The notes under the pieces were generated by a model that saw nothing but the letters and a program-made list of their open reading frames with translations, did no database searches and was not told where the DNA came from. Shown piece by piece: positions 14,274-26,655 of a stretch of 64,000 bases of DNA. The stretch is from contig OZ244651.1 in the NCBI GenBank assembly GCA_965218695.1, forward strand, positions 2,240,001-2,304,000, in the 5' to 3' direction. This DNA is from Nitrosopumilus sp. Its GTDB lineage: Archaea; Thermoproteota; Nitrososphaeria; Nitrososphaerales; Nitrosopumilaceae. The position numbers were made by a program, and so were the translations under genes. Positions within the stretch are counted from its first letter, which is position 1. Each line of letters begins with the position of its first letter.

Positions 14274-15625
14274 CCTCCCTAGAGGATGCGCTGACCCATT
14301 CGAGGAACGCAGGAATCGACGAGTGCGAGATAGTCCGCGCGACAAGAAGGGTCACCACAGTACGAATAACCGATTCGGCAATAGCAGAAGTCAAGCAGGG
14401 CCTGGATGACAGGTACGGAATCAGGCTGATTCACCAGAAGAGGATTGCCTCTATTCAGACGGCCAGCAGCGATGATCTGCGGGGATCCGTTGACGATGCG
14501 CTGAATTCGTCAAAGAGCCTCAGGCCCAGGGAGTTCTGGGGCGGGCTGCCGCACGCAGCACGTCCCGTGCAGCTCGAGGGTACGTTTGATGAGAGACTCA
14601 GGGACGTCTCGGGGGCAACGGCTGCAGACATTGCACAGGACATGATAAACTCGGCTGCAGACGACAGGGTTGACACCGTTACAGGATCGCTTAACATAGT
14701 CTCGGAGCGTTTTGAGATAGAAAATTCCAACGGACTGCACCACGCAGACGATGCAACGTACATTGCAGGAATCATCAATGCAGACTCTGAACACGGAGTC
14801 GTGCCGGTATCCGGCATCGGCCACTCCAGTGCAAGAACCCTGTCGGGCTTTTCGGCAGGACGTGCAGGACAGGACGCAAGGGAGATGTGCATCGGGTCAA
14901 TAAACCCGCAGAAGATAGAGCCTGCAAGATACTCGGTAATACTTGAGCCGTATTCGGTGGGAGAGCTGCTCTCGTTTGTCGTCGCGCCAAACTTCAACCT
15001 CAAGACGTTTGCAGAAAAGAGGAGCTGCTTTGCAGGCAGGATTGGGGAGAGGATTGCAGCAGAGGAACTGAGCATGGCCGACGACCCACACATGCCAGAG
15101 GGGATAGGGACAAGATCCATAGACGACGAGGGCGTGGGCACCCAAAAGAGGCTGCTCATAGACAGGGGCGTCATGAGGGGCACCTTTTCAAACATGCTTG
15201 ACGGCTACAGGGAGGGGACAGAGTCGTCTGGAAACGCCACAAGGCATGGCATCCCGATGGGCCGAAGCTGTGATCCAGTTCCGGACTCTGCTGCACACAA
15301 CCTGACAATAGAACCCGGCAGAATGTCCCAAGACGAGATGATAAGGGATACCAGAAGAGGGCTGCTGGTCGGGAGGCTCTGGTATACGTATCCGGTAAAT
15401 CCCATCAGGGGCGACTTTTCATGTACGGCAAGAAGCGGGATAAGGATAATCAAGGACGGCACAGTTGTTCCAGGAGTGCCAGTCAGGATAATACACAACC
15501 TACATGCCATGCTTGGCAGCATCTCGGGGATTGGAAGCGACCAGAGAAGCGTCATTCAATGGGCATCGCGCCCGGCAGCCGCACCGTCAGTCAGGATAGA
15601 CGGCGTCCCGGTAGAGGCCATATGA
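14270..15625 (+). CDS. TldE/PmbA family protein
   Basis: DDPH..G.GTRSIDDEGV, SSGNA, VNPIRGDFS; lacks the HExxxH of TldD. Confidence 0.88.
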   Translation: MTSLEDALTHSRNAGIDECEIVRATRRVTTVRITDSAIAEVKQGLDDRYGIRLIHQKRIASIQTASSDDLRGSVDDALNSSKSLRPREFWGGLPHAARPVQLEGTFDERLRDVSGATAADIAQDMINSAADDRVDTVTGSLNIVSERFEIENSNGLHHADDATYIAGIINADSEHGVVPVSGIGHSSARTLSGFSAGRAGQDAREMCIGSINPQKIEPARYSVILEPYSVGELLSFVVAPNFNLKTFAEKRSCFAGRIGERIAAEELSMADDPHMPEGIGTRSIDDEGVGTQKRLLIDRGVMRGTFSNMLDGYREGTESSGNATRHGIPMGRSCDPVPDSAAHNLTIEPGRMSQDEMIRDTRRGLLVGRLWYTYPVNPIRGDFSCTARSGIRIIKDGTVVPGVPVRIIHNLHAMLGSISGIGSDQRSVIQWASRPAAAPSVRIDGVPVEAI

Positions 15626-15933
15626 GGAGTCACCACCCCTCTTTGAAGAATGCCAGGGCCAAGTATGCAGCAGCAGCAGGCAGCAGCATAACCGCCCCCA
15701 GCCTGTCTTATTCCCGTACCGTGTGACTTGACATGCATTGAAACAATCACTCTCTCCCCCCAAAAGAGAGTCCCATCGGCAGAATGCATGCCCAGGCAGA
15801 TCCCGGATCCTGACACGTGGCCGGCTCCGGTTCTGTGAAGTTGTAGGTACATAGGCATGAATATGGATCTTCTCCAGATTGATGCTCGGGAGGGCACTGT
15901 TCAGAATTGTGGATCAATGTTAAATCATGCCAA

Positions 15934-16065
15934 GCCAGATCATCTATGGTAACCCGTCCCCGGACCTATCCTTGCCTTGCGTCCGGCTTGCCACTTTGTG
16001 TATGCCTTTTGCCCTCTTAAGCATTATCTGCGGACAGAATCCTGCCAGATCCGCAGAAGATACGG
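15934..16065. repeat. solo arm of the long-TIR MITE at 26383-26655
   Basis: shares ATCTATG.TAACCC.TCCCCGG, TTGCGTCC.GCTTG, CTTAAGC, CAGAATCCTGCCAGATCCGC with 26390-26503. Confidence 0.75.
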
Positions 16066-16217
16066 CTGTTTGCCCCGCGACGTGACATGCATAATCCCTT
16101 CCGGGGGGTCTGGGGGGCGTCCCCCCAGCATTCATGTAAAAACATCCCGTCATTCCCATAATTTGTGCACAGCATCCGCTATATCCGGCAGGTCTGCTGA
16201 CGTCACCGGTTCTGCGT

Positions 16218-17291
16218 CTACACCCTCATCAGCTTCTTCATCTTGGTGCGGTACAGCGTCTTGTTCCTGTCCACGTACAGGGTGCCGTCCGACAGCATAT
16301 GCCATATGATCGTCAGCATCTTGTTTGCGACGTGCGTCATGGCAATGTACGGCTTGTGCCTCTTGATCAGGCGGGCATAGTACCCCTTCATCCTCACGTC
16401 GTGGTGCGCTGCGACCATCGCGCACTGGATCATCACCCAGTTGACCTTCCGGTTCGAATCCTTCTTCATCCTGCCGTGGTACAACGTGTCGCCGGACTGG
16501 TGGAGCGTGGGACACATCCCGGCCCAAGACACGAGCTTCTTTGGGCTGTCAAACCTTTCGATGCCGTCGATCTCCGCTGACACGAGTGCAACCGAGAACA
16601 CGCTCATCCCCGTCATGCTCAGTATTTTGGAGCTGTAGCTGCCGCTGACGTAGCGCCTGATCTCGCCTTCGGTCTTTTTTATCTCGCCGTTGTAGTGCCT
16701 TATCCTGGATATGCAGCGGTCAAGGACGAACCTGTCGTGGACGCTTCCCATGTCCGCCCCCACGAGGTATTCCAGTACCTTCTCGCTCCAGACGTCTTGT
16801 CCACCGTCCTTGGGGCTGATGTCGTACTTGTCAGTCAGCGTGTGCCCGAAGTTGATCTCGCTTGTCCTGTCCTGCACCAGACGGATCTGGTATCTGATGA
16901 CCTGCTTTATCCCACGGGATTCCGTGGATCCTATGTGGCATGCGGGAACCAAATCGGCCCTGAGCAGGTGGGCAAGCGTCCTTGCGTCGACGGTGTCGTT
17001 CTTTATGCTGGCCCACGCGATTGCCTTGATCTTGAACGGGTTGGCAAGGTCGATGGGGATTCCCGCCTGCTCAAACGCGTCTGCCGTCTTTATCCAGTGG
17101 TTTCCGGTAGACTCGCAGACCGCCCTGCACTGCCCGTATTCGGTCCTGGCACTTGCCGCAAACTCGGAGGCGCCTGCCACGGTGTTGGCGTACGAGGATT
17201 CCTCGAGAATGTTTCCCTTTGAATCCATTATGCACGTGACGCACTTCCTCTTTCCAATGTCTATTCCGATACTCTTTTCTATTTTTCTCAC
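16218..17291 (-). CDS. IS110-family DEDD recombinase/transposase
   Basis: IGIDIGK, VCESTG, IKNDTVDARTLA, FDSPKKLVSWAGMCPTLHQSG (serine motif). Confidence 0.95.
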   Translation of the reverse strand: MRKIEKSIGIDIGKRKCVTCIMDSKGNILEESSYANTVAGASEFAASARTEYGQCRAVCESTGNHWIKTADAFEQAGIPIDLANPFKIKAIAWASIKNDTVDARTLAHLLRADLVPACHIGSTESRGIKQVIRYQIRLVQDRTSEINFGHTLTDKYDISPKDGGQDVWSEKVLEYLVGADMGSVHDRFVLDRCISRIRHYNGEIKKTEGEIRRYVSGSYSSKILSMTGMSVFSVALVSAEIDGIERFDSPKKLVSWAGMCPTLHQSGDTLYHGRMKKDSNRKVNWVMIQCAMVAAHHDVRMKGYYARLIKRHKPYIAMTHVANKMLTIIWHMLSDGTLYVDRNKTLYRTKMKKLMRV

Positions 17292-17299
17292 CTCCCTTT

Positions 17300-17448
17300 T
17301 GCTTGTGGCAGGCCGGAAGCTGCAAACATCTATCAGGGCTCGGAACCCAGTAACACAGCAGCTCGGATGGCCCCATTCACTAAACAGGCCTTGATGGCCA
17401 TGATCTGATAGGGGTCGGCCCGCTACGTATGGTGGGCGTGTGGGGTTA
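17300..17448 (-). ncRNA. candidate IS110 bridge RNA
   Basis: two tandem stem/internal-loop/hairpin modules (17369-17420 and 17318-17363) directly upstream of the recombinase; transcribed strand not established. Confidence 0.6.
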
Positions 17449-17485
17449 TCATGCGTTCACCAAAAATGAACAGTACCTACTGGAA

Positions 17486-19249
17486 GTAATTGTTTCGCTT
17501 TTTGAAGTAACCGGATGGCCTAGCGGACATCCATGGTACCGGGAATGAATCTAATAATTTCGTACTCGGGATGACAAAGTTAGACCATCGCGATCCAAGT
17601 ACGAGTGGGTGCCAGTCCCTTCGATCTTTGGAAATGAAGGAACCAGCACGCCGAACATGCTTGGAGGCGGAGGAATTTAAGGCAATGCACGAACACTCCT
17701 TGCCGCAAATCCCGCTGGATGCCGGGGCGTGCATGGAACCAGGGTGCAGGTGCTGCCTGCACTGGGCAAAAATGTTCGGCGACGTGCTAGGCCCAACCCG
17801 CAAGATCCTGGAGGCAGCCTGCGAAATTGCAGGCGAGTCGGGCGCAGACTGGAAGGAGGCCGGGCGCCTGCAGGCGCTCGTCTCGTCCCTCACAGAGGAC
17901 AACAAGAGGTACGCCAAGACAAACAGGGATCTCAACGCCAAGGCAAACGGGATCAGCGTCCCCGCGCCCAAGAAGAAGGCCGGTCAGGGAAAGAAGGCCG
18001 CCGGCAGGCCCAAGGGGCAGAAACCCACCGTCAACTGCAGGCCAAAGCGCGTGGACCGCGTCGAGGAGATCGACTGCAAGGAGTGCCCCGACTGCGGCGG
18101 CGGGCTCTCTGGGAGGGTGACTGCCGAGTACGATCGCATCGTGACTGTCATGCGCGTCCTGTTGGAGAACGTCAGGTACGTCATCAAGCGGCGCTGGTGC
18201 CGCGTGTGCAAAAGACAGGTCTCCGGGAGGGTTCCCGGCGCGGCAAAACACGCGCGCCGTTCATCAAACTTTGACGCGGTCATGACGTCCCTGAACATGA
18301 ATGGCATGTCGCATGCCAGGACCGCAGAATTTGGCGGCGACGCGTTGGGGCACGTAACCTCGCGCTCGTCTGCCTACCGCGGCAAGATCAGGCAGGCCGG
18401 GCGCATGGCGCCGGAACGCGATTCGGTAAGGGAGCGCGTGCTGGAGGCGCCACACCTGAACGTAGACGAGTTTCACTGGCCGCTGGGCGGCAAGCGCGGC
18501 TACGGGATAGTGGCTCTGGCAAAAAATCACTGCCTCGTGGAGGTGGCCGACTCGCGGGACATCAAGACGCTCCGCCAGACGCTCCCGGGCTACCGGGGAA
18601 CCATAACGCAGGACTCGTATCCCGGGTGGCTCCACGTGGGATCGTGCCGCCAGATGTGCGTGTGGCACCAGGAACGCCTGGTGCAAAAGGACGTCCTGAC
18701 CAACCCCGGGGGTGACGTTCCGGCGTTTCTGGACAGGCTGTCGGCAATCCACATGAAGATTTACCGCGCCTCCAGGATCAAGGACCGGCACCCAAGGATC
18801 GTCGCTGCCCGCTGCATAGACGCGGAGCTGCGCGAGCTGATGAACGAACCGTTTGCAGGCGACGGGGACGGCACCATCGCCCGGCACAAGAAGAGGTACC
18901 CGCGGGAGGGATATTTCATGACCACCTGCCTGCACGTGGACGGCATCGAGCCTGACAACAACGCAGTCGAGAGGGCCAACCGGAGGTTCGTGGCCGTAAG
19001 GAGCGACGGGGGCGGGAACCGCTCCAGGAAGGGCATGGATGCCAACTCGATCCTGTTCACGCTGCTGGCAACTGACAGGATCAACAAGGACAGCTTCTTT
19101 GATCACCTGGTCCGCTCGTCTTCCGGGGACGGATGAGGCGCCGTCCGACGGCACGTGCAGTGCGTCACGGGGAAAAAGAGTCCACGGTAAGGGGAAGGCT
19201 GCACCCGCTCCGCTGCCAAGCAGCCCACTTCAAAAAGCGAAACTATTAC
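17486..19249 (+). mobile_element. IS66-family (single-ORF, ISBst12-like) insertion sequence
   Basis: 23-bp TIRs GTAATTGTTTCGCTTTTTGAAGT / ACTTCAAAAAGCGAAACTATTAC; 8-bp TSD TACTGGAA (17478-17485, 19250-19257). Confidence 0.93.
17571..19136 (+). CDS. IS66-family transposase
   Basis: coiled coil, GRPKG, CPDCG..C..C zinc ribbon, NVDEF, TQDSY, QMCVWH, PDNNAVERANR; true start may be downstream. Confidence 0.9.
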   Translation: MTKLDHRDPSTSGCQSLRSLEMKEPARRTCLEAEEFKAMHEHSLPQIPLDAGACMEPGCRCCLHWAKMFGDVLGPTRKILEAACEIAGESGADWKEAGRLQALVSSLTEDNKRYAKTNRDLNAKANGISVPAPKKKAGQGKKAAGRPKGQKPTVNCRPKRVDRVEEIDCKECPDCGGGLSGRVTAEYDRIVTVMRVLLENVRYVIKRRWCRVCKRQVSGRVPGAAKHARRSSNFDAVMTSLNMNGMSHARTAEFGGDALGHVTSRSSAYRGKIRQAGRMAPERDSVRERVLEAPHLNVDEFHWPLGGKRGYGIVALAKNHCLVEVADSRDIKTLRQTLPGYRGTITQDSYPGWLHVGSCRQMCVWHQERLVQKDVLTNPGGDVPAFLDRLSAIHMKIYRASRIKDRHPRIVAARCIDAELRELMNEPFAGDGDGTIARHKKRYPREGYFMTTCLHVDGIEPDNNAVERANRRFVAVRSDGGGNRSRKGMDANSILFTLLATDRINKDSFFDHLVRSSSGDG

Positions 19250-19305
19250 TACTGGAACAAGAAAAGGGTGCGTTAGGACTTTTCCTGCTTGTCGACCCGT
19301 GTTTT

Positions 19306-19623
19306 CTATATGGAATTCCATGACATTATGATGGGAGGACCGAAACAGGCCGGACCTATGGAAACCGCCTGCCCGCCCGTGAGGCCAATGCCGATGACTA
19401 CCATGGGCATCACGTACCACCACTTGAACCTCTTTGCCTTCCATACGCCGACTGTCGCCATCGTGGCGAATATCGCCGTCGCGGCCGGCCCTAGGCACCA
19501 CACTACCCCTGGAAAGTTCAGCCACATAACAATCATGGCCAGTTGGTACGCGGCCCCGATTATGCCCGCGCCGGCAAACCACGCGTATGCATTTCTGGTA
19601 AAAAAAAGGAGGGTGGGATGCAT
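19306..19623 (-). CDS. small hypothetical membrane protein (about 3 TM)
   Basis: 105 aa, strongly hydrophobic with a WKAKRFKW loop; cargo of the composite element. Confidence 0.6.
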   Translation of the reverse strand: MHPTLLFFTRNAYAWFAGAGIIGAAYQLAMIVMWLNFPGVVWCLGPAATAIFATMATVGVWKAKRFKWWYVMPMVVIGIGLTGGQAVSIGPACFGPPIIMSWNSI

Positions 19624-19643
19624 CAGTCTACTGTGTAAAAGAA

Positions 19644-19690
19644 GGCACTGGTAAATTTAGGTGATTAGATCACCCTAATTTACCAGAGTC
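19644..19690. mobile_element. minimal 47-bp MITE made only of two IS6-like ends
   Basis: GGCACTGGTAAATTTAGGTGAT-TAG-ATCACCCTAATTTACCAGAGTC; ends resemble those at 28440/28668 and 60282/60399. Confidence 0.65.
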
Positions 19691-19704
19691 ACTGACCCCC
19701 CCCC

Positions 19705-19902
19705 CTAGGCTTTCAAGAGATCGCGGATCAGATTGGCAGAATCTGCCTTCTTTTGTTGTTTCAGGTGGGCCTTGTTGCTACTGTGTATCACCCAAGCTAT
19801 CAGACAACTGGCTACGAGTCCTATGGCAGATCCGATTATTGTACCCAATTCTATCAATTCTAACAATGAAAGCCCGAATATTGGACTTATGTCCGTTATC
19901 AA
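19705..19902 (-). pseudogene. probably truncated single-TM protein
   Basis: TM helix then amphipathic helix, ending abruptly at a G-homopolymer next to the MITE. Confidence 0.4.
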
Positions 19903-20057
19903 TGAGAAGTATCCATGCTTGGCACTTATGTGAAGTATTTTTTCGTCACCGAACTCAATTCAGAGAAGACTCATTTCCAGCTCCCGTAAACCCGACAGAA
20001 CCAATCTGGAGAAGATCTATATTCATGCCTATGTACCGATAACTTCACAGAACCCCG

Positions 20058-20149
20058 GTACATACTCAGGTTCCCCTCAAACTCAGGCGTGAATATACGT
20101 AAAACAGTACATGTTTACGCCTAGACAATACCGGGACCTGAGTATGTAC
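20058..20149. mobile_element. 92-bp MITE with GTA ends (IS66-like)
   Basis: TIRs GTACATACTCAGGT / ACCTGAGTATGTAC; 8-bp TSD GAACCCCG (20050-20057, 20150-20157). Confidence 0.88.
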
Positions 20150-20199
20150 GAACCCCGGCTCCGCAGGTTTATAATGCAGTGTACCGTACTATACGGTAC

Positions 20200-20544
20200 A
20201 TGCAATCAAGACTCACGTGTATGACCCCGGAAGTGGCGGATCAGTTTGGAGACTTTATCATAAAGAGGGCCGAGCAGACACAGGACGTGGTAAGGGCAAG
20301 AACGAGGGATTTTAGCATGCTGTCCCTGCTGAAACTGCTGTATCAGCTCAGGGGCAGTCCCATGTCGTTTGTAGAGCTGTATACAAGGTCGGAGATCAGA
20401 ATGAAGAGATCATTCCTGAATTACCTGCACCTGTGTGTGGACTATAACTTTGTCAAGAGGGAGGCAGTCGGATGCCGGGTAAGATACTCCATCACGTGCA
20501 GGGGGAGGACCATGCTGGATCTCTTCACGCAGAAAGATAATTAG
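20200..20544 (+). CDS. winged-helix DNA-binding protein
   Basis: SFLNYLHLCVDYNFV..YSITCRGRTMLDLF wing pattern; TTTATAAT box at 20168-20175. Confidence 0.75.
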   Translation: MQSRLTCMTPEVADQFGDFIIKRAEQTQDVVRARTRDFSMLSLLKLLYQLRGSPMSFVELYTRSEIRMKRSFLNYLHLCVDYNFVKREAVGCRVRYSITCRGRTMLDLFTQKDN

Positions 20545-20566
20545 GCAGATCAGGCAGTACAAGATC

Positions 20567-21292
20567 ATGCAGAATGAATTTCCCGAGGCGGAGGTCTTTG
20601 AGACAAGAGACGTGGAGATGAACAGTCCGGTAATATTTGCAGGATTCGTAGGGGCCGGCCTCGTAGGCCCGGTAGCAATAGACCACATAATCAAGGAGCT
20701 GGAGATGGACGAGGTGGGAGTGATAAGATCAAAGTATCTCCCCCCGTCCACTGTCTTTATGAGGGGAAGGCTTCGCCATCCGTTCAGATTCTACGCAAAC
20801 AAGAACGGAACAATCTGTGCAATAATCTGCGAGGTGACCCTGAGGATGGACGGACTGTACTCGATGATATCGACCATTCTGGACTGGGCTGCATTGAAAG
20901 GCTCAAGGGAGATTGTGATTTTGGACGGGGTTGCAAGTGAGGCGCATGACAACAAGGCGTACTGCGCAGCAGAGGATGACTTGATCAGGACAATGGCAGA
21001 CAAGGACATCAACATGATACCGCAGGGGTTCATTACGGGTATGCCGGGAGGCATACTCAACGAATGCCTAGTAAGAGAGATCCAGGGCATAGCCCTGCTG
21101 GCAAAGGCAAACGACATGGAGCCTGATTCGGCGGCGGCGGCAACGCTCGTTGAGGCGCTTGGTAGGTTCTACGAGATTGACATAGATGCCACCGGACTGC
21201 GTGAGGAGAGCGAGAGGATTCAGTCAGAGTTCACCGAGCTCTCTGACAAGTATGTAAAGCATAGAAGAGAGATAACCGGGATGTACATGTGA
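20567..21292 (+). CDS. proteasome assembly chaperone (PAC2) family protein
   Basis: GFVGAGLVGPVA, HPFRFY, ITGMPGGIL, PDSAAAA, C-terminal HbYX-like MYM. Confidence 0.9.
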   Translation: MQNEFPEAEVFETRDVEMNSPVIFAGFVGAGLVGPVAIDHIIKELEMDEVGVIRSKYLPPSTVFMRGRLRHPFRFYANKNGTICAIICEVTLRMDGLYSMISTILDWAALKGSREIVILDGVASEAHDNKAYCAAEDDLIRTMADKDINMIPQGFITGMPGGILNECLVREIQGIALLAKANDMEPDSAAAATLVEALGRFYEIDIDATGLREESERIQSEFTELSDKYVKHRREITGMYM

Positions 21293-26253: not shown

Positions 26254-26300
26254 CGGTTCTGTAACGTTATCGTGTGCTGTGTATGGATCTTCTCCGGGTT
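26254..26300 (+). repeat. third, degenerate copy of the GGTTCTGT...GATCTTCTCC terminal repeat
   Basis: GGTTCTGTAACGTTATCG...TATGGATCTTCTCCGGGTTG resembles the 15829/20054 TIRs; partner end not found. Confidence 0.65.
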
Positions 26301-26382
26301 GGATCGCGGTTGAGGCTACACATTCACGGGGGCTCTTCAAACAAGACGGTCTGACGCATATCGATTGGATGAATTTTGTCTA

Positions 26383-26655
26383 AGATCCACATCTATGTTA
26401 ACCCCTCCCCGGGCTTGTCCAAGTTTTGCGTCCAGCTTGTCATATTGAGTATGTTTTTTTCCTTCTTAAGCGTTACCTGCATGCAGAATCCTGCCAGATC
26501 CGCGGGACAACAAGATCCAAACCTTGCCGTTTTCTGCAAATTTGACTGAATTCTTCTTGCAGGTAACGCTTAAGAAGACAAAGGGCATACCCAAAGTGAC
26601 AAGCTGGACGCAAAACACGGATGAGTCCGGGGAGGGGTTACATATATGTGGATCT
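26383..26655. mobile_element. MITE with about 100-bp imperfect inverted arms
   Basis: AGATCCACATCTATGTTAACCCCTCCCCGG..TTGCGTCCAGCTTGTCA..CTTCTTAAGCGTTACCTGCA mirrored by TGCAGGTAACGCTTAAGAAG..TGACAAGCTGGACGCAA..CCGGGGAGGGGTTACATATATGTGGATCT; no clear TSD. Confidence 0.8.

Follow-up and report, generated by a model that had tools for sequence, protein, structure and literature searches.

What occupies the spacer between pmbA and the wHTH gene in this ammonia-oxidising archaeon, and how did it arrive there? We analysed a window of 64,000 nt on contig OZ244651.1 of Nitrosopumilus sp. (assembly GCA_965218695.1; genome 2,627,169 bases), in which this spacer is the insertion site of an element with the TATA box of the wHTH gene 5 bp downstream. 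The original prediction held that an 8-bp target duplication around the element was masked on the right by a later MITE. Indeed, the left copy, CCGGCTCC, can be read at 15821-15828, and the right copy is split, with its first three bases, CCG, at 20055-20057 and its last five, GCTCC, at 20158-20162. Between them lies a 92-bp MITE with 17-nt inverted ends (20058-20149, plus strand), flanked by a duplication of 8 bp that it made itself, GAACCCCG (20050-20057 and 20150-20157); the genome has eleven more copies of it, complete or nearly so, at 98-99%. Excising the MITE with one copy of GAACCCCG in silico joins ...CACAGAACC directly to CCGGCTCC, so that CCGGCTCC stands on each side of the element; the chance of such an 8/8 flank match is 1 in 65,536. 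The excision is justified because 9 of the 12 MITE copies examined have identical, in-register 8-bp flanks, rising to 10/12 if a one-base shift is allowed.

The prediction also called for an empty site in relatives. In a metagenome contig (run X1) from a relative that is ~94-95% identical, pmbA is joined to the wHTH gene (15679 to 20164) across 135 letters, compared with ~150 expected for an empty site. What this contig shows is the spacing of the joined flanks, which is consistent with an empty site and with insertion as one unit; a single CCGGCTCC would be expected at its junction. We conclude that the element entered the spacer as one unit via an 8-bp staggered cut that duplicated CCGGCTCC. 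This marks a 4.3-kb insertion immediately upstream of a regulator gene promoter in an ammonia-oxidising archaeon.

Much of that length arrived later, as expected if the element had become a landing pad for other ISs. An IS110-family element (15941-17463, minus strand), delimited by BLAST to ~10 other copies at 77-81% identity, holds an intact 357-aa recombinase (16218-17291, minus strand) that matches Pfam DEDD_Tnp_IS110 and Transposase_20 and scores 199 bits against an NCBIfam IS110 cut-off of 140. An IS66-family element of 1764 bp (17486-19249, plus strand) with 24-nt inverted ends is flanked by its target duplication TACTGGAA at 17478-17485 and 19250-19257. Its 521-aa transposase (17571-19136, plus strand) matches Pfam DDE_Tnp_IS66 (E 3.6e-14) and scores 131.5 bits for NCBIfam IS66, under the cut-off of 180; the same protein gave the sole ISL3 match in the NCBIfam scoring, a weak secondary one. 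Because this IS66 is 100% identical to four of its five other full-length copies (the fifth is at 99.94%), its insertion is recent. In run X1, a low-depth contig passes from 17476 straight to 19249, and the two sides share 9 letters there. These data show that the IS110 landed inside the element first, followed recently by the IS66, and that the MITE landed across the right tip. With the IS110 and IS66 taken out, the element is 931 bp (0.93 kb) long, shorter than the ~1.1 kb first estimated. The case shows how three later insertions can hide from annotation an element that has 53-bp ends and lacks a transposase.

The arms of the element, 15829-15886 and 19997-20054, match over 58 nt at 91%, and their best 53 nt, the repeats that the original prediction had described (15829-15881, plus strand, and 20002-20054, minus strand), are identical at 50/53 positions (94%). 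This pair is unique in the 2.63-Mb genome: searches of all 2,627,169 bases with BLAST and nhmmer detected no second copy. The left repeat begins with the tip GGTTCTGTGAAGTT, with GGATCTTCTCCAGATTG subterminal to it. We then scored the genome with a profile made exclusively from the ends of IS6-transposase elements of three other Nitrosopumilus genomes (G091, G055 and G057) and containing nothing from this one. The right repeat ranked first genome-wide (E 1.3e-8) and the left repeat second (E 1.4e-7). The third rank (E 0.0047) fell at 19955-20002 on the minus strand, a sequence that had been taken for a solo MITE arm and is actually a third IS6-type end. This inner end is oriented as the right repeat and adjoins the inner edge of that repeat with its tip, which matches both ends of one element in the congener G081. 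It shows that the history was more tangled than that of a simple cassette.

The transposons behind the profile carry a transposase together with passenger genes within 2.7-3.4 kb. That of G091 is 2747 bp long, has ends resembling the window's over at least 55 of the 70 bp compared, and shares an identical layout; those of G057 (3355 bp) and G055 (2674 bp) have 7/8 and 8/8 duplications, respectively. Transposases from related-end elements match Pfam DDE_Tnp_IS240 (PF13610) at 47.8 and 51.1 against a cut-off of 27. They are 373-374 aa long, with an N-terminal zinc-binding domain, and NCBIfam IS6 (NF033587) is their best match; it aligns over its whole length and scores 109-116 bits, the cut-off being 125. 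Together with the 8-bp duplication, this homology supports the view that the ends are IS6-type, as proposed, and ties them to a little-described, often cargo-bearing archaeal branch of that family. ISL3 elements also produce 8-bp duplications and have ends starting GG, and the original prediction had kept an ISL3 source, with GGYTCT tips, as an alternative. We regard this as highly improbable: all three transposases scored from related-end elements are best in IS6, none has an ISL3 match at E<=0.001, and two of the three are located between GGTTCTGT tips.

A further feature of these ends is the 15-mer GATCTTCTCCAGATT, which occurs 20 times in the genome compared with an expectation of 0.005. 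Each of the 20 copies has, within ~45 nt upstream of it, sequence that looks like the end of an element: 15 are near GGTTCTCC-type tips (one of them degenerate), three are in another shared sequence, and two are in this element.

The presence of three ends raises the question of whether they ever belonged to one transposing unit. Two or more separate IS6-type insertions, providing the left end and the double right end, could instead have come together around genes already in place, through recombination or one-ended events. The third end adjoining the right repeat and a weak tip-like 14-mer (4 mismatches) that ends at 17477 fit such a chimera, and rearrangements between IS6-family copies are described in a review of the family (PMC7986276). 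However, a perfect 8-bp direct repeat borders the two outer tips exactly, a 1-in-65,536 match; the outer arms agree at 50/53 positions, whereas the inner end has diverged much further; and the X1 contig lacks the entire 4.5 kb in one step. We therefore consider a chimera quite unlikely.

What does the element carry? Two membrane ORFs had been predicted, and one is an intact, conserved gene (19306-19623, minus strand) for a 105-aa protein in which inspection shows three hydrophobic stretches. Homologues occur in metagenome proteins at 83% and 67% identity and in the chromosomes of three congeners at 52%, 40% and 34%, and this genome has a 34% paralogue. The protein matched no Pfam family, and no IS6-type ends were detected beside its chromosomal homologues in the 1.5 kb fetched per side. 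The other, a 65-aa ORF (19705-19902, minus strand), probably represents the beginning of a longer gene that has been truncated: no homologue of comparable length was found, and the ORF aligns along its length with the first part of a frame in the congener G002 that remains open past 130 residues, and also with a 29-residue fragment at C1:577.7 kb. The repeat described as a 47-bp mini-MITE does exist, as a palindrome of 39-41 bp (18+3+18) at 19648-19688, identified by an inverted-repeat search; this genome has it at two further places, and G002 at 12 or more.

No transposase accompanies this cargo. Across the 931 bp, tblastn at E<=10 returned only noise (best 0.32), confirming the predicted lack of a cognate transposase, and nothing inside matched the IS6-type models PF13610 or NF033587. 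The element is therefore at most a derivative of the IS6 family, not an IS. In composition it matches a mobile insertion cassette: IS-type inverted ends, a passenger gene unrelated to transposition, and no transposase.

Because congeners carry cargo together with a transposase, gene loss after insertion is a live alternative. The element could have arrived as an autonomous IS6-type transposon with cargo, comparable to the 2.7-3.4-kb homologous-end elements of G091, G057 and G055, and its transposase gene could then have been deleted on site. That in-place decay does occur is shown by a relic at C1:270327-270657, where a C-terminal transposase fragment lies next to a tip-less end much like the window's. 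The single-copy state of the element also fits this account. Against it, the 931 bp hold no transposase remnant at all, whereas the relic keeps a recognisable fragment, and elements that have these tips but lack a transposase do move in trans within the genus. In G081, perfect 8-bp duplications flank 12 of the 16 full-length elements that have these tips and encode only TnpB. There are also MITEs of 141-388 bp; in this end family, mobilisation in trans is a habit. We judge arrival with a transposase possible, although the less probable course.

Our preferred explanation, to which we give a probability of roughly 55%, is that an archaeal IS6-type transposon gave rise to the element, a non-autonomous form of 931 bp that was moved in trans. 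The element comprises the two 53-bp inverted ends, the intact small membrane-protein gene, the truncated gene start, the palindrome and the stray third end; the transposase would already have been absent on arrival. An IS6-type DDE transposase made elsewhere would have moved it, recognising the tip GGTTCTGT... and probably also the subterminal GATCTTCTCCAGATT.

Could such an enzyme be found in this genome today? Intact IS6-type transposase genes are present, but none lies between ends of the window type, and only the 9-base tip or the 15-mer is held in common. The element that hosts an intact 374-aa gene (C1:1109876-1110985) has ends that match over the first 9 bases only. A six-copy IS shares GATCTTCTCCAGATT and has a different tip, with 9-bp duplications at five of its six copies. 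Because no transposon in this genome now has matching ends, the element is probably stranded. Searches for a second copy gave 0 in this genome, 0 in JGI metagenome contigs and 0 in the genome collection at the element's spacing, and because the element is single-copy in all collections searched, its own mobility is something we can only infer. The original proposal of a non-autonomous cassette moving cargo in trans is upheld in the missing transposase and the carriage of a gene unrelated to transposition; movement in trans remains a proposal.

The same tips bound TnpB-only elements, bare MITEs and, here, the host-type membrane-protein gene, and also, with a transposase, restriction-modification and TIR-domain defence genes. 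A broader suggestion, which we offer tentatively and think rather doubtful, is that the long-ended IS6-type shell is a general gene vehicle in Nitrosopumilus, that one resident transposase serves several end types via the shared 15-mer GATCTTCTCCAGATT, and that the window element has been caught in the capture of a host gene and its shuffling between ammonia-oxidising archaea. To our knowledge, few mobile vehicles are known in these organisms. Should the shell indeed move host genes, it would provide them with a route of gene exchange.

We see in the element a well-resolved case of a known class, not a new mechanism. MIC231 of Bacillus cereus, which stems from the IS4-family element IS231, and other mobile insertion cassettes likewise combine IS inverted ends, passenger genes unrelated to transposition, a target duplication and no transposase. 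Their mobilisation by a transposase in trans has been shown by experiment; for the window element it is our reading of the sequence. Unlike the bacterial, IS4-family MIC231, this element is archaeal, IS6-type and single-copy, with 53-bp ends. IS26-type pseudo-compound transposons also use IS6-family ends to mobilise a gene foreign to the IS, but depend on a pair of complete IS copies in direct orientation, whereas here there are two inverted 53-bp ends. An IS6 pseudo-compound transposon was rejected as a description of the locus, in which we found those inverted ends and no IS6 copy.

In Varani et al. (2021, PMC7986276), the IS6 family is characterised by 8-bp direct target repeats, inverted ends starting GG, and a DDE transposase with an HTH; members are typically 700-890 bp long with ends of ~14 bp, zinc-finger forms occur mainly in Clostridia, and the ISfinder entries include two MITEs, of 227 and 336 bp, and a single member that carries a passenger gene, ISDsp3. 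Compared with that norm, the window element agrees in its 8-bp duplication and GG-starting inverted ends. Its ends, however, are 53 bp long and two-part, its transposase-bearing relatives span 2.7-3.4 kb, the linked transposases have an N-terminal zinc-binding domain and score under the NCBIfam cut-off, and members of this clade commonly carry cargo. Altae-Tran et al. (2023, PMC10691335) describe TnpBs that are DDE-associated and have inverted ends. The TnpB-only elements of Nitrosopumilus are a further parallel, and the G081 element whose ends match the inner end of the window element is one of them: they share the tip GGTTCTGTGAAGTT, the 8-bp duplications and the lack of an internal transposase, but they carry TnpB and are multi-copy (16 full-length in G081), whereas the window element carries a host-type membrane-protein gene in a single copy.

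The element is bounded by terminal repeats of 53 nt (15829-15881 and 20002-20054), which align at 94% by BLAST and agree at 50 of 53 positions; a repeat search gave inverted arms of 58 nt at 91% (15829-15886 and 19997-20054). Longer arms were set aside: past 58 nt, shuffled sequences did as well in 62 of 500 cases, so the similarity there lacks significance. The 8-bp sequence CCGGCTCC lies directly left of the left tip, at 15821-15828. Outside the right tip the order is CCG, a 92-bp MITE with 17-nt inverted ends (20058-20149, delimited by repeat search) and GCTCC, with GAACCCCG on each side of the MITE. Identical 8-bp flanks surround 9 of the 12 copies of this MITE that we examined as printed, and a tenth with a one-base shift, so the MITE's duplication at the right tip is real. 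Taking out the MITE and one GAACCCCG leaves CACAGAACC joined to CCGGCTCC. The original prediction, of inverted repeats whose CCGGCTCC duplication is hidden by a MITE, was therefore right to the base. The repeats could instead belong to separate insertions that together form a chimera, but this is unlikely, because the duplication outside the tips is exact and the arms match each other so closely. A separate proposal was a small MITE running from the left end to a 14-mer that weakly resembles a tip (4 mismatches) and ends at 17477; it was dropped, as there is no matching duplication.

Overall, the element has IS6-type ends, a single 8-bp duplication outside both tips and no transposase. The tip presumably resembles the ends of IS257 and IS1216. 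Its 14 bases (at most 1 mismatch) occur in 30 of 81 genus genomes, including the genome that holds the window (G000), and a reversed control pattern was rare. Several congeners have elements between such tips. The one in G091 (2747 bp, locus L038 518-3264) has ends that resemble each other across at least 55 of the 70 bp printed and that share the layout of the window's, a tip and spacer followed by ATGGATCTTCT.CA.ATTG; it contains a MunI-like restriction enzyme, an MT-A70 methylase and a frameshifted IS6-type transposase. The G057 element (3355 bp, L037 553-3907) has a 373-aa transposase (PF13610, E 2.2e-12), an N6/N4 methylase and a duplication matching at 7 of 8 positions, and that of G055 (2674 bp, L041 573-3246) has a CAP12/Pycsar-type TIR-domain protein, the N-terminal part of an IS6-type transposase and a duplication of 8/8. 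In these three long-ended IS6-type elements, defence-type cargo sits beside the transposase. Paired tips also bound a 3458-bp element in G014 (duplication 8/8) and, in congeners, MITEs of 141-388 bp.

An end profile was built solely from the G091, G055 and G057 ends, without G000 sequence, and run over the 2.63 Mb of the genome. It ranked the window's right repeat first (E 1.3e-8) and the left repeat second (E 1.4e-7) genome-wide. The G057 and G000 transposases match the whole NCBIfam model 'IS6 family transposase', at 109 and 116 bits against a cut-off of 125, and they also match the IS1/IS1595-type zinc-binding N-domain; no transposase scored from elements with related ends matched ISL3 at E<=0.001. 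The profile ranks and the linked transposases thus bear out the original reading of the ends as IS6-type, and on these sequence grounds we assign them to a divergent zinc-finger IS6 branch with long ends. The alternative offered with that reading, that the ends are ISL3-type, is so improbable that we reject it. Third in the profile ranking was an inner end (20002-19955, E 0.0047). It has the tip of an element in G081 that the 8-bp repeat TTTCTTAT flanks on both sides. In the window this tip directly adjoins the right repeat on its inner side, a position that points to an older event. Elsewhere in the window, a solo IS6-type end at 26255-26305 has the same layout (a tip, then ATGGATCTTCTCC.G.TTG); no partner for it was found, and two inverted IS110-type end fragments lie about 135 bp beyond it (26390-26641).

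The inserts nested in the element were delimited by BLAST of 15501-20500 against the genome. An IS110-type element occupies 15941-17463. It has about 10 other copies, 77-81% identical, with 7 of the alignments beginning exactly at 15941, and its 357-aa protein scores 199 bits against the NCBIfam IS110 model (cut-off 140). An IS66-type element with 24-nt inverted ends, found also by repeat search, occupies 17486-19249; five other full-length copies exist in the genome (four at 100% and one at 99.94%), and its 8-bp duplication TACTGGAA is present at 17478-17485 and 19250-19257. Without these two inserts the element measures 112 + 22 + 797 = 931 bp. The idea that IS110 targets IS6-type arms was dropped, since no such ends flank five other IS110 copies within 130 bases to the left and 60 to the right. 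At 17474, a loose contig end in sequencing runs X6 and X7 does match an IS110 end and continue into sequence resembling the interior of an IS6-type end (...GTTATCGGGAGCT...ATGGATC).

Logan contigs supplied population evidence on the site and on the order of events. The search for the empty site expected in relatives succeeded in part. None was found in species-level relatives, where pmbA and the wHTH/PAC2 gene are differently placed in G018, G010 and G021; the gap between them is 1.9 kb in G018 (holding a 312-aa membrane protein), 1.3 kb in G010 and 4.2 kb in G021. A 1725-bp contig from run X1, about 94-95% identical, does join the flanks, covering 15323-15679 and then 20164-20700. It has 135 letters between them, compared with about 150 for a clean empty site, so that this relative, judged from flank spacing, lacks the whole insert. 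Stretches without cover in X1, such as the left junction (depth 0.09), are uninformative either way.

A contig from run X7, about 96% identical, spans the left junction and repeat (15000-16071) and then has a 1050-bp gap inside the IS110. The IS110 at this site in the X7 relative thus has an internal deletion (16071-17122), and its presence there implies that the IS110 inserted before the two strains diverged. The state of the locus prior to the arrival of IS66 is seen in a low-depth X1 contig, where 17476 connects directly to 19249, the two sides sharing 9 letters. From these contig forms, the element came first and the IS110, which the X7 strain also has, second; the IS66 and the MITE followed. 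In X3, X6 and X7, a much more abundant organism (contig depth 92, 356 and 21, respectively; the window's strain reaches 3-6 in X3 and X6) has an approximately 90% identical copy of 19250-19686 only, set between flanks that differ from the window's. At the right edge of the element, 5 bp separate the end of the duplication from a TTTATAA box (20168-20174), which is followed by a perfect 8+3+8 palindrome and the ATG of the wHTH gene at 20200. Upstream of the wHTH promoter, the 4.3-kb insert has thus taken the place of all earlier sequence.

The absence of a transposase raises the question of how the element moved. No IS6-type or TnpB similarity was found inside it, and tblastn at E<=10 on the 931-bp core gave only noise. 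We infer that a DDE transposase supplied in trans would have moved it. The best support for such movement comes from outside the window, from the 1288-bp elements of G081 (L035 582-1869; L067-L082), which have 25-bp IS6-type ends and tnpB as sole gene (NCBIfam guided_TnpB, 129 bits, cut-off 100). Sixteen full-length copies carry these tips and are 94-100% identical, and 12 of them have perfect 8-bp duplications, which implies that transposase-less elements with these ends do move. Against movement in trans, the element is single-copy: BLAST of the 53-bp repeat against the whole genome (2.63 Mb, nine contigs) and an nhmmer profile found no other copy, and there is no sister copy in the metagenome or genome contigs searched. 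Its end type had 0 hits in metagenome contigs, and a search of genome contigs at its fixed spacing likewise gave 0; relaxing the pattern yielded 7 loci, each of them in Nitrosopumilus. The element might instead have inserted as an autonomous unit and lost its transposase afterwards, a plausible, if less likely, history.

Four features elsewhere in the genome bear on the source of a transposase. An intact 374-aa transposase is encoded by a 2699-bp IS6-type element at C1:1109206-1111904 (C1, contig OZ244651.1, on which the window spans 2240001-2304000; 8-bp duplication CTGTGGCA), whose ends have just the first 9 bases in common with the window's. Contig 4 has an IS6-type gene with no detectable ends. 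A six-copy IS (C1:35526-37217 and five more, 100% identical, 9-bp duplications at 5 of 6) has ends of about 56 bp (GGTTCTCC...GGATCTTCTCCAGATT) and a protein of 381-404 aa whose best match is IS6 (84.6 bits); it shares with the window's element the subterminal 15-mer GATCTTCTCCAGATT. This 15-mer occurs 20 times in the genome, against 0.005 expected, and at all 20 copies an apparent element end lies upstream within about 45 nt. Fifteen lie near GGTTCTCC-type tips (one degenerate), three in another shared sequence and two in the window's repeats, and GATCTTCTCCAGATT is thus a putative transposase-binding site common to several end types. A relic at C1:270327-270657, in which a C-terminal IS6-type transposase fragment adjoins an end that lacks the tip and closely resembles the window's repeat, may be a decayed partner element. 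Because no resident transposon matches both the tip and the subterminal motif, the element is now probably stranded in this genome. At four tnpB genes of G000 (C1:765779-767011, 917932-919164, 2389795-2390994 and 825049-826249), a GGTTCTGT- or GGCTCTGT-type tip lies only downstream of the 3' end; at most 1 mismatch in 11, no matching tip was found on the other side. In G078 (L040 565-2508), a 647-aa TnpB-like ORF with an intein-like LAGLIDADG domain mid-protein lies within a 2045-bp element that has the window's tips and no duplication.

The cargo includes a 105-aa ORF (19306-19623, minus strand) with three hydrophobic stretches by inspection (a membrane prediction by eye). Its protein matched no Pfam family, and the Atlas, with a best score of 0.87, offered nothing usable. 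Homologues are known from metagenomes, at 83% (P0002) and 67% (P0003) identity; no host genome for these was present among 401 family genomes searched, and a related-locus search of JGI metagenome contigs gave no relative. Three of 150 other genus genomes have homologues at 52%, 40% and 34%, and G000 has a 34% paralogue. These genomic homologues occupy ordinary chromosomal settings, and within 1.5 kb on each side (at most 2 mismatches in 14) no IS6-type ends were found, bar one weak match in G081. The existence of homologues in such settings argues that the ORF is a real host-type gene. The copy in the abundant organism corresponds to this ORF module up to a palindrome, a dispersed repeat of 39-41 bp (19648-19688). 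No homologue of similar length was found for the 65-aa ORF; it aligns lengthwise with the start of a G002 frame open for more than 130 residues, and is therefore probably a truncated gene start.

Functionally, the element would belong to the class of mobile insertion cassettes. None of the titles and abstracts searched dealt with a thaumarchaeal IS6-type cassette that carries host genes. Altae-Tran et al. (2023, PMC10691335) describe TnpBs that lie between inverted ends together with DDE transposases, as well as solo TnpBs whose ends are the same, and the TnpB-only elements of G081 are of a kind known from that work. The family overview of Varani et al. (2021, PMC7986276) gives IS6 members a length of 700-890 bp and ends of about 14 bp, and its listing has two MITEs and one passenger-carrying member. 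Compared with the family as outlined there, the branch described here differs in its 53-bp ends, its 373-374-aa zinc-finger transposases and its frequent cargo.
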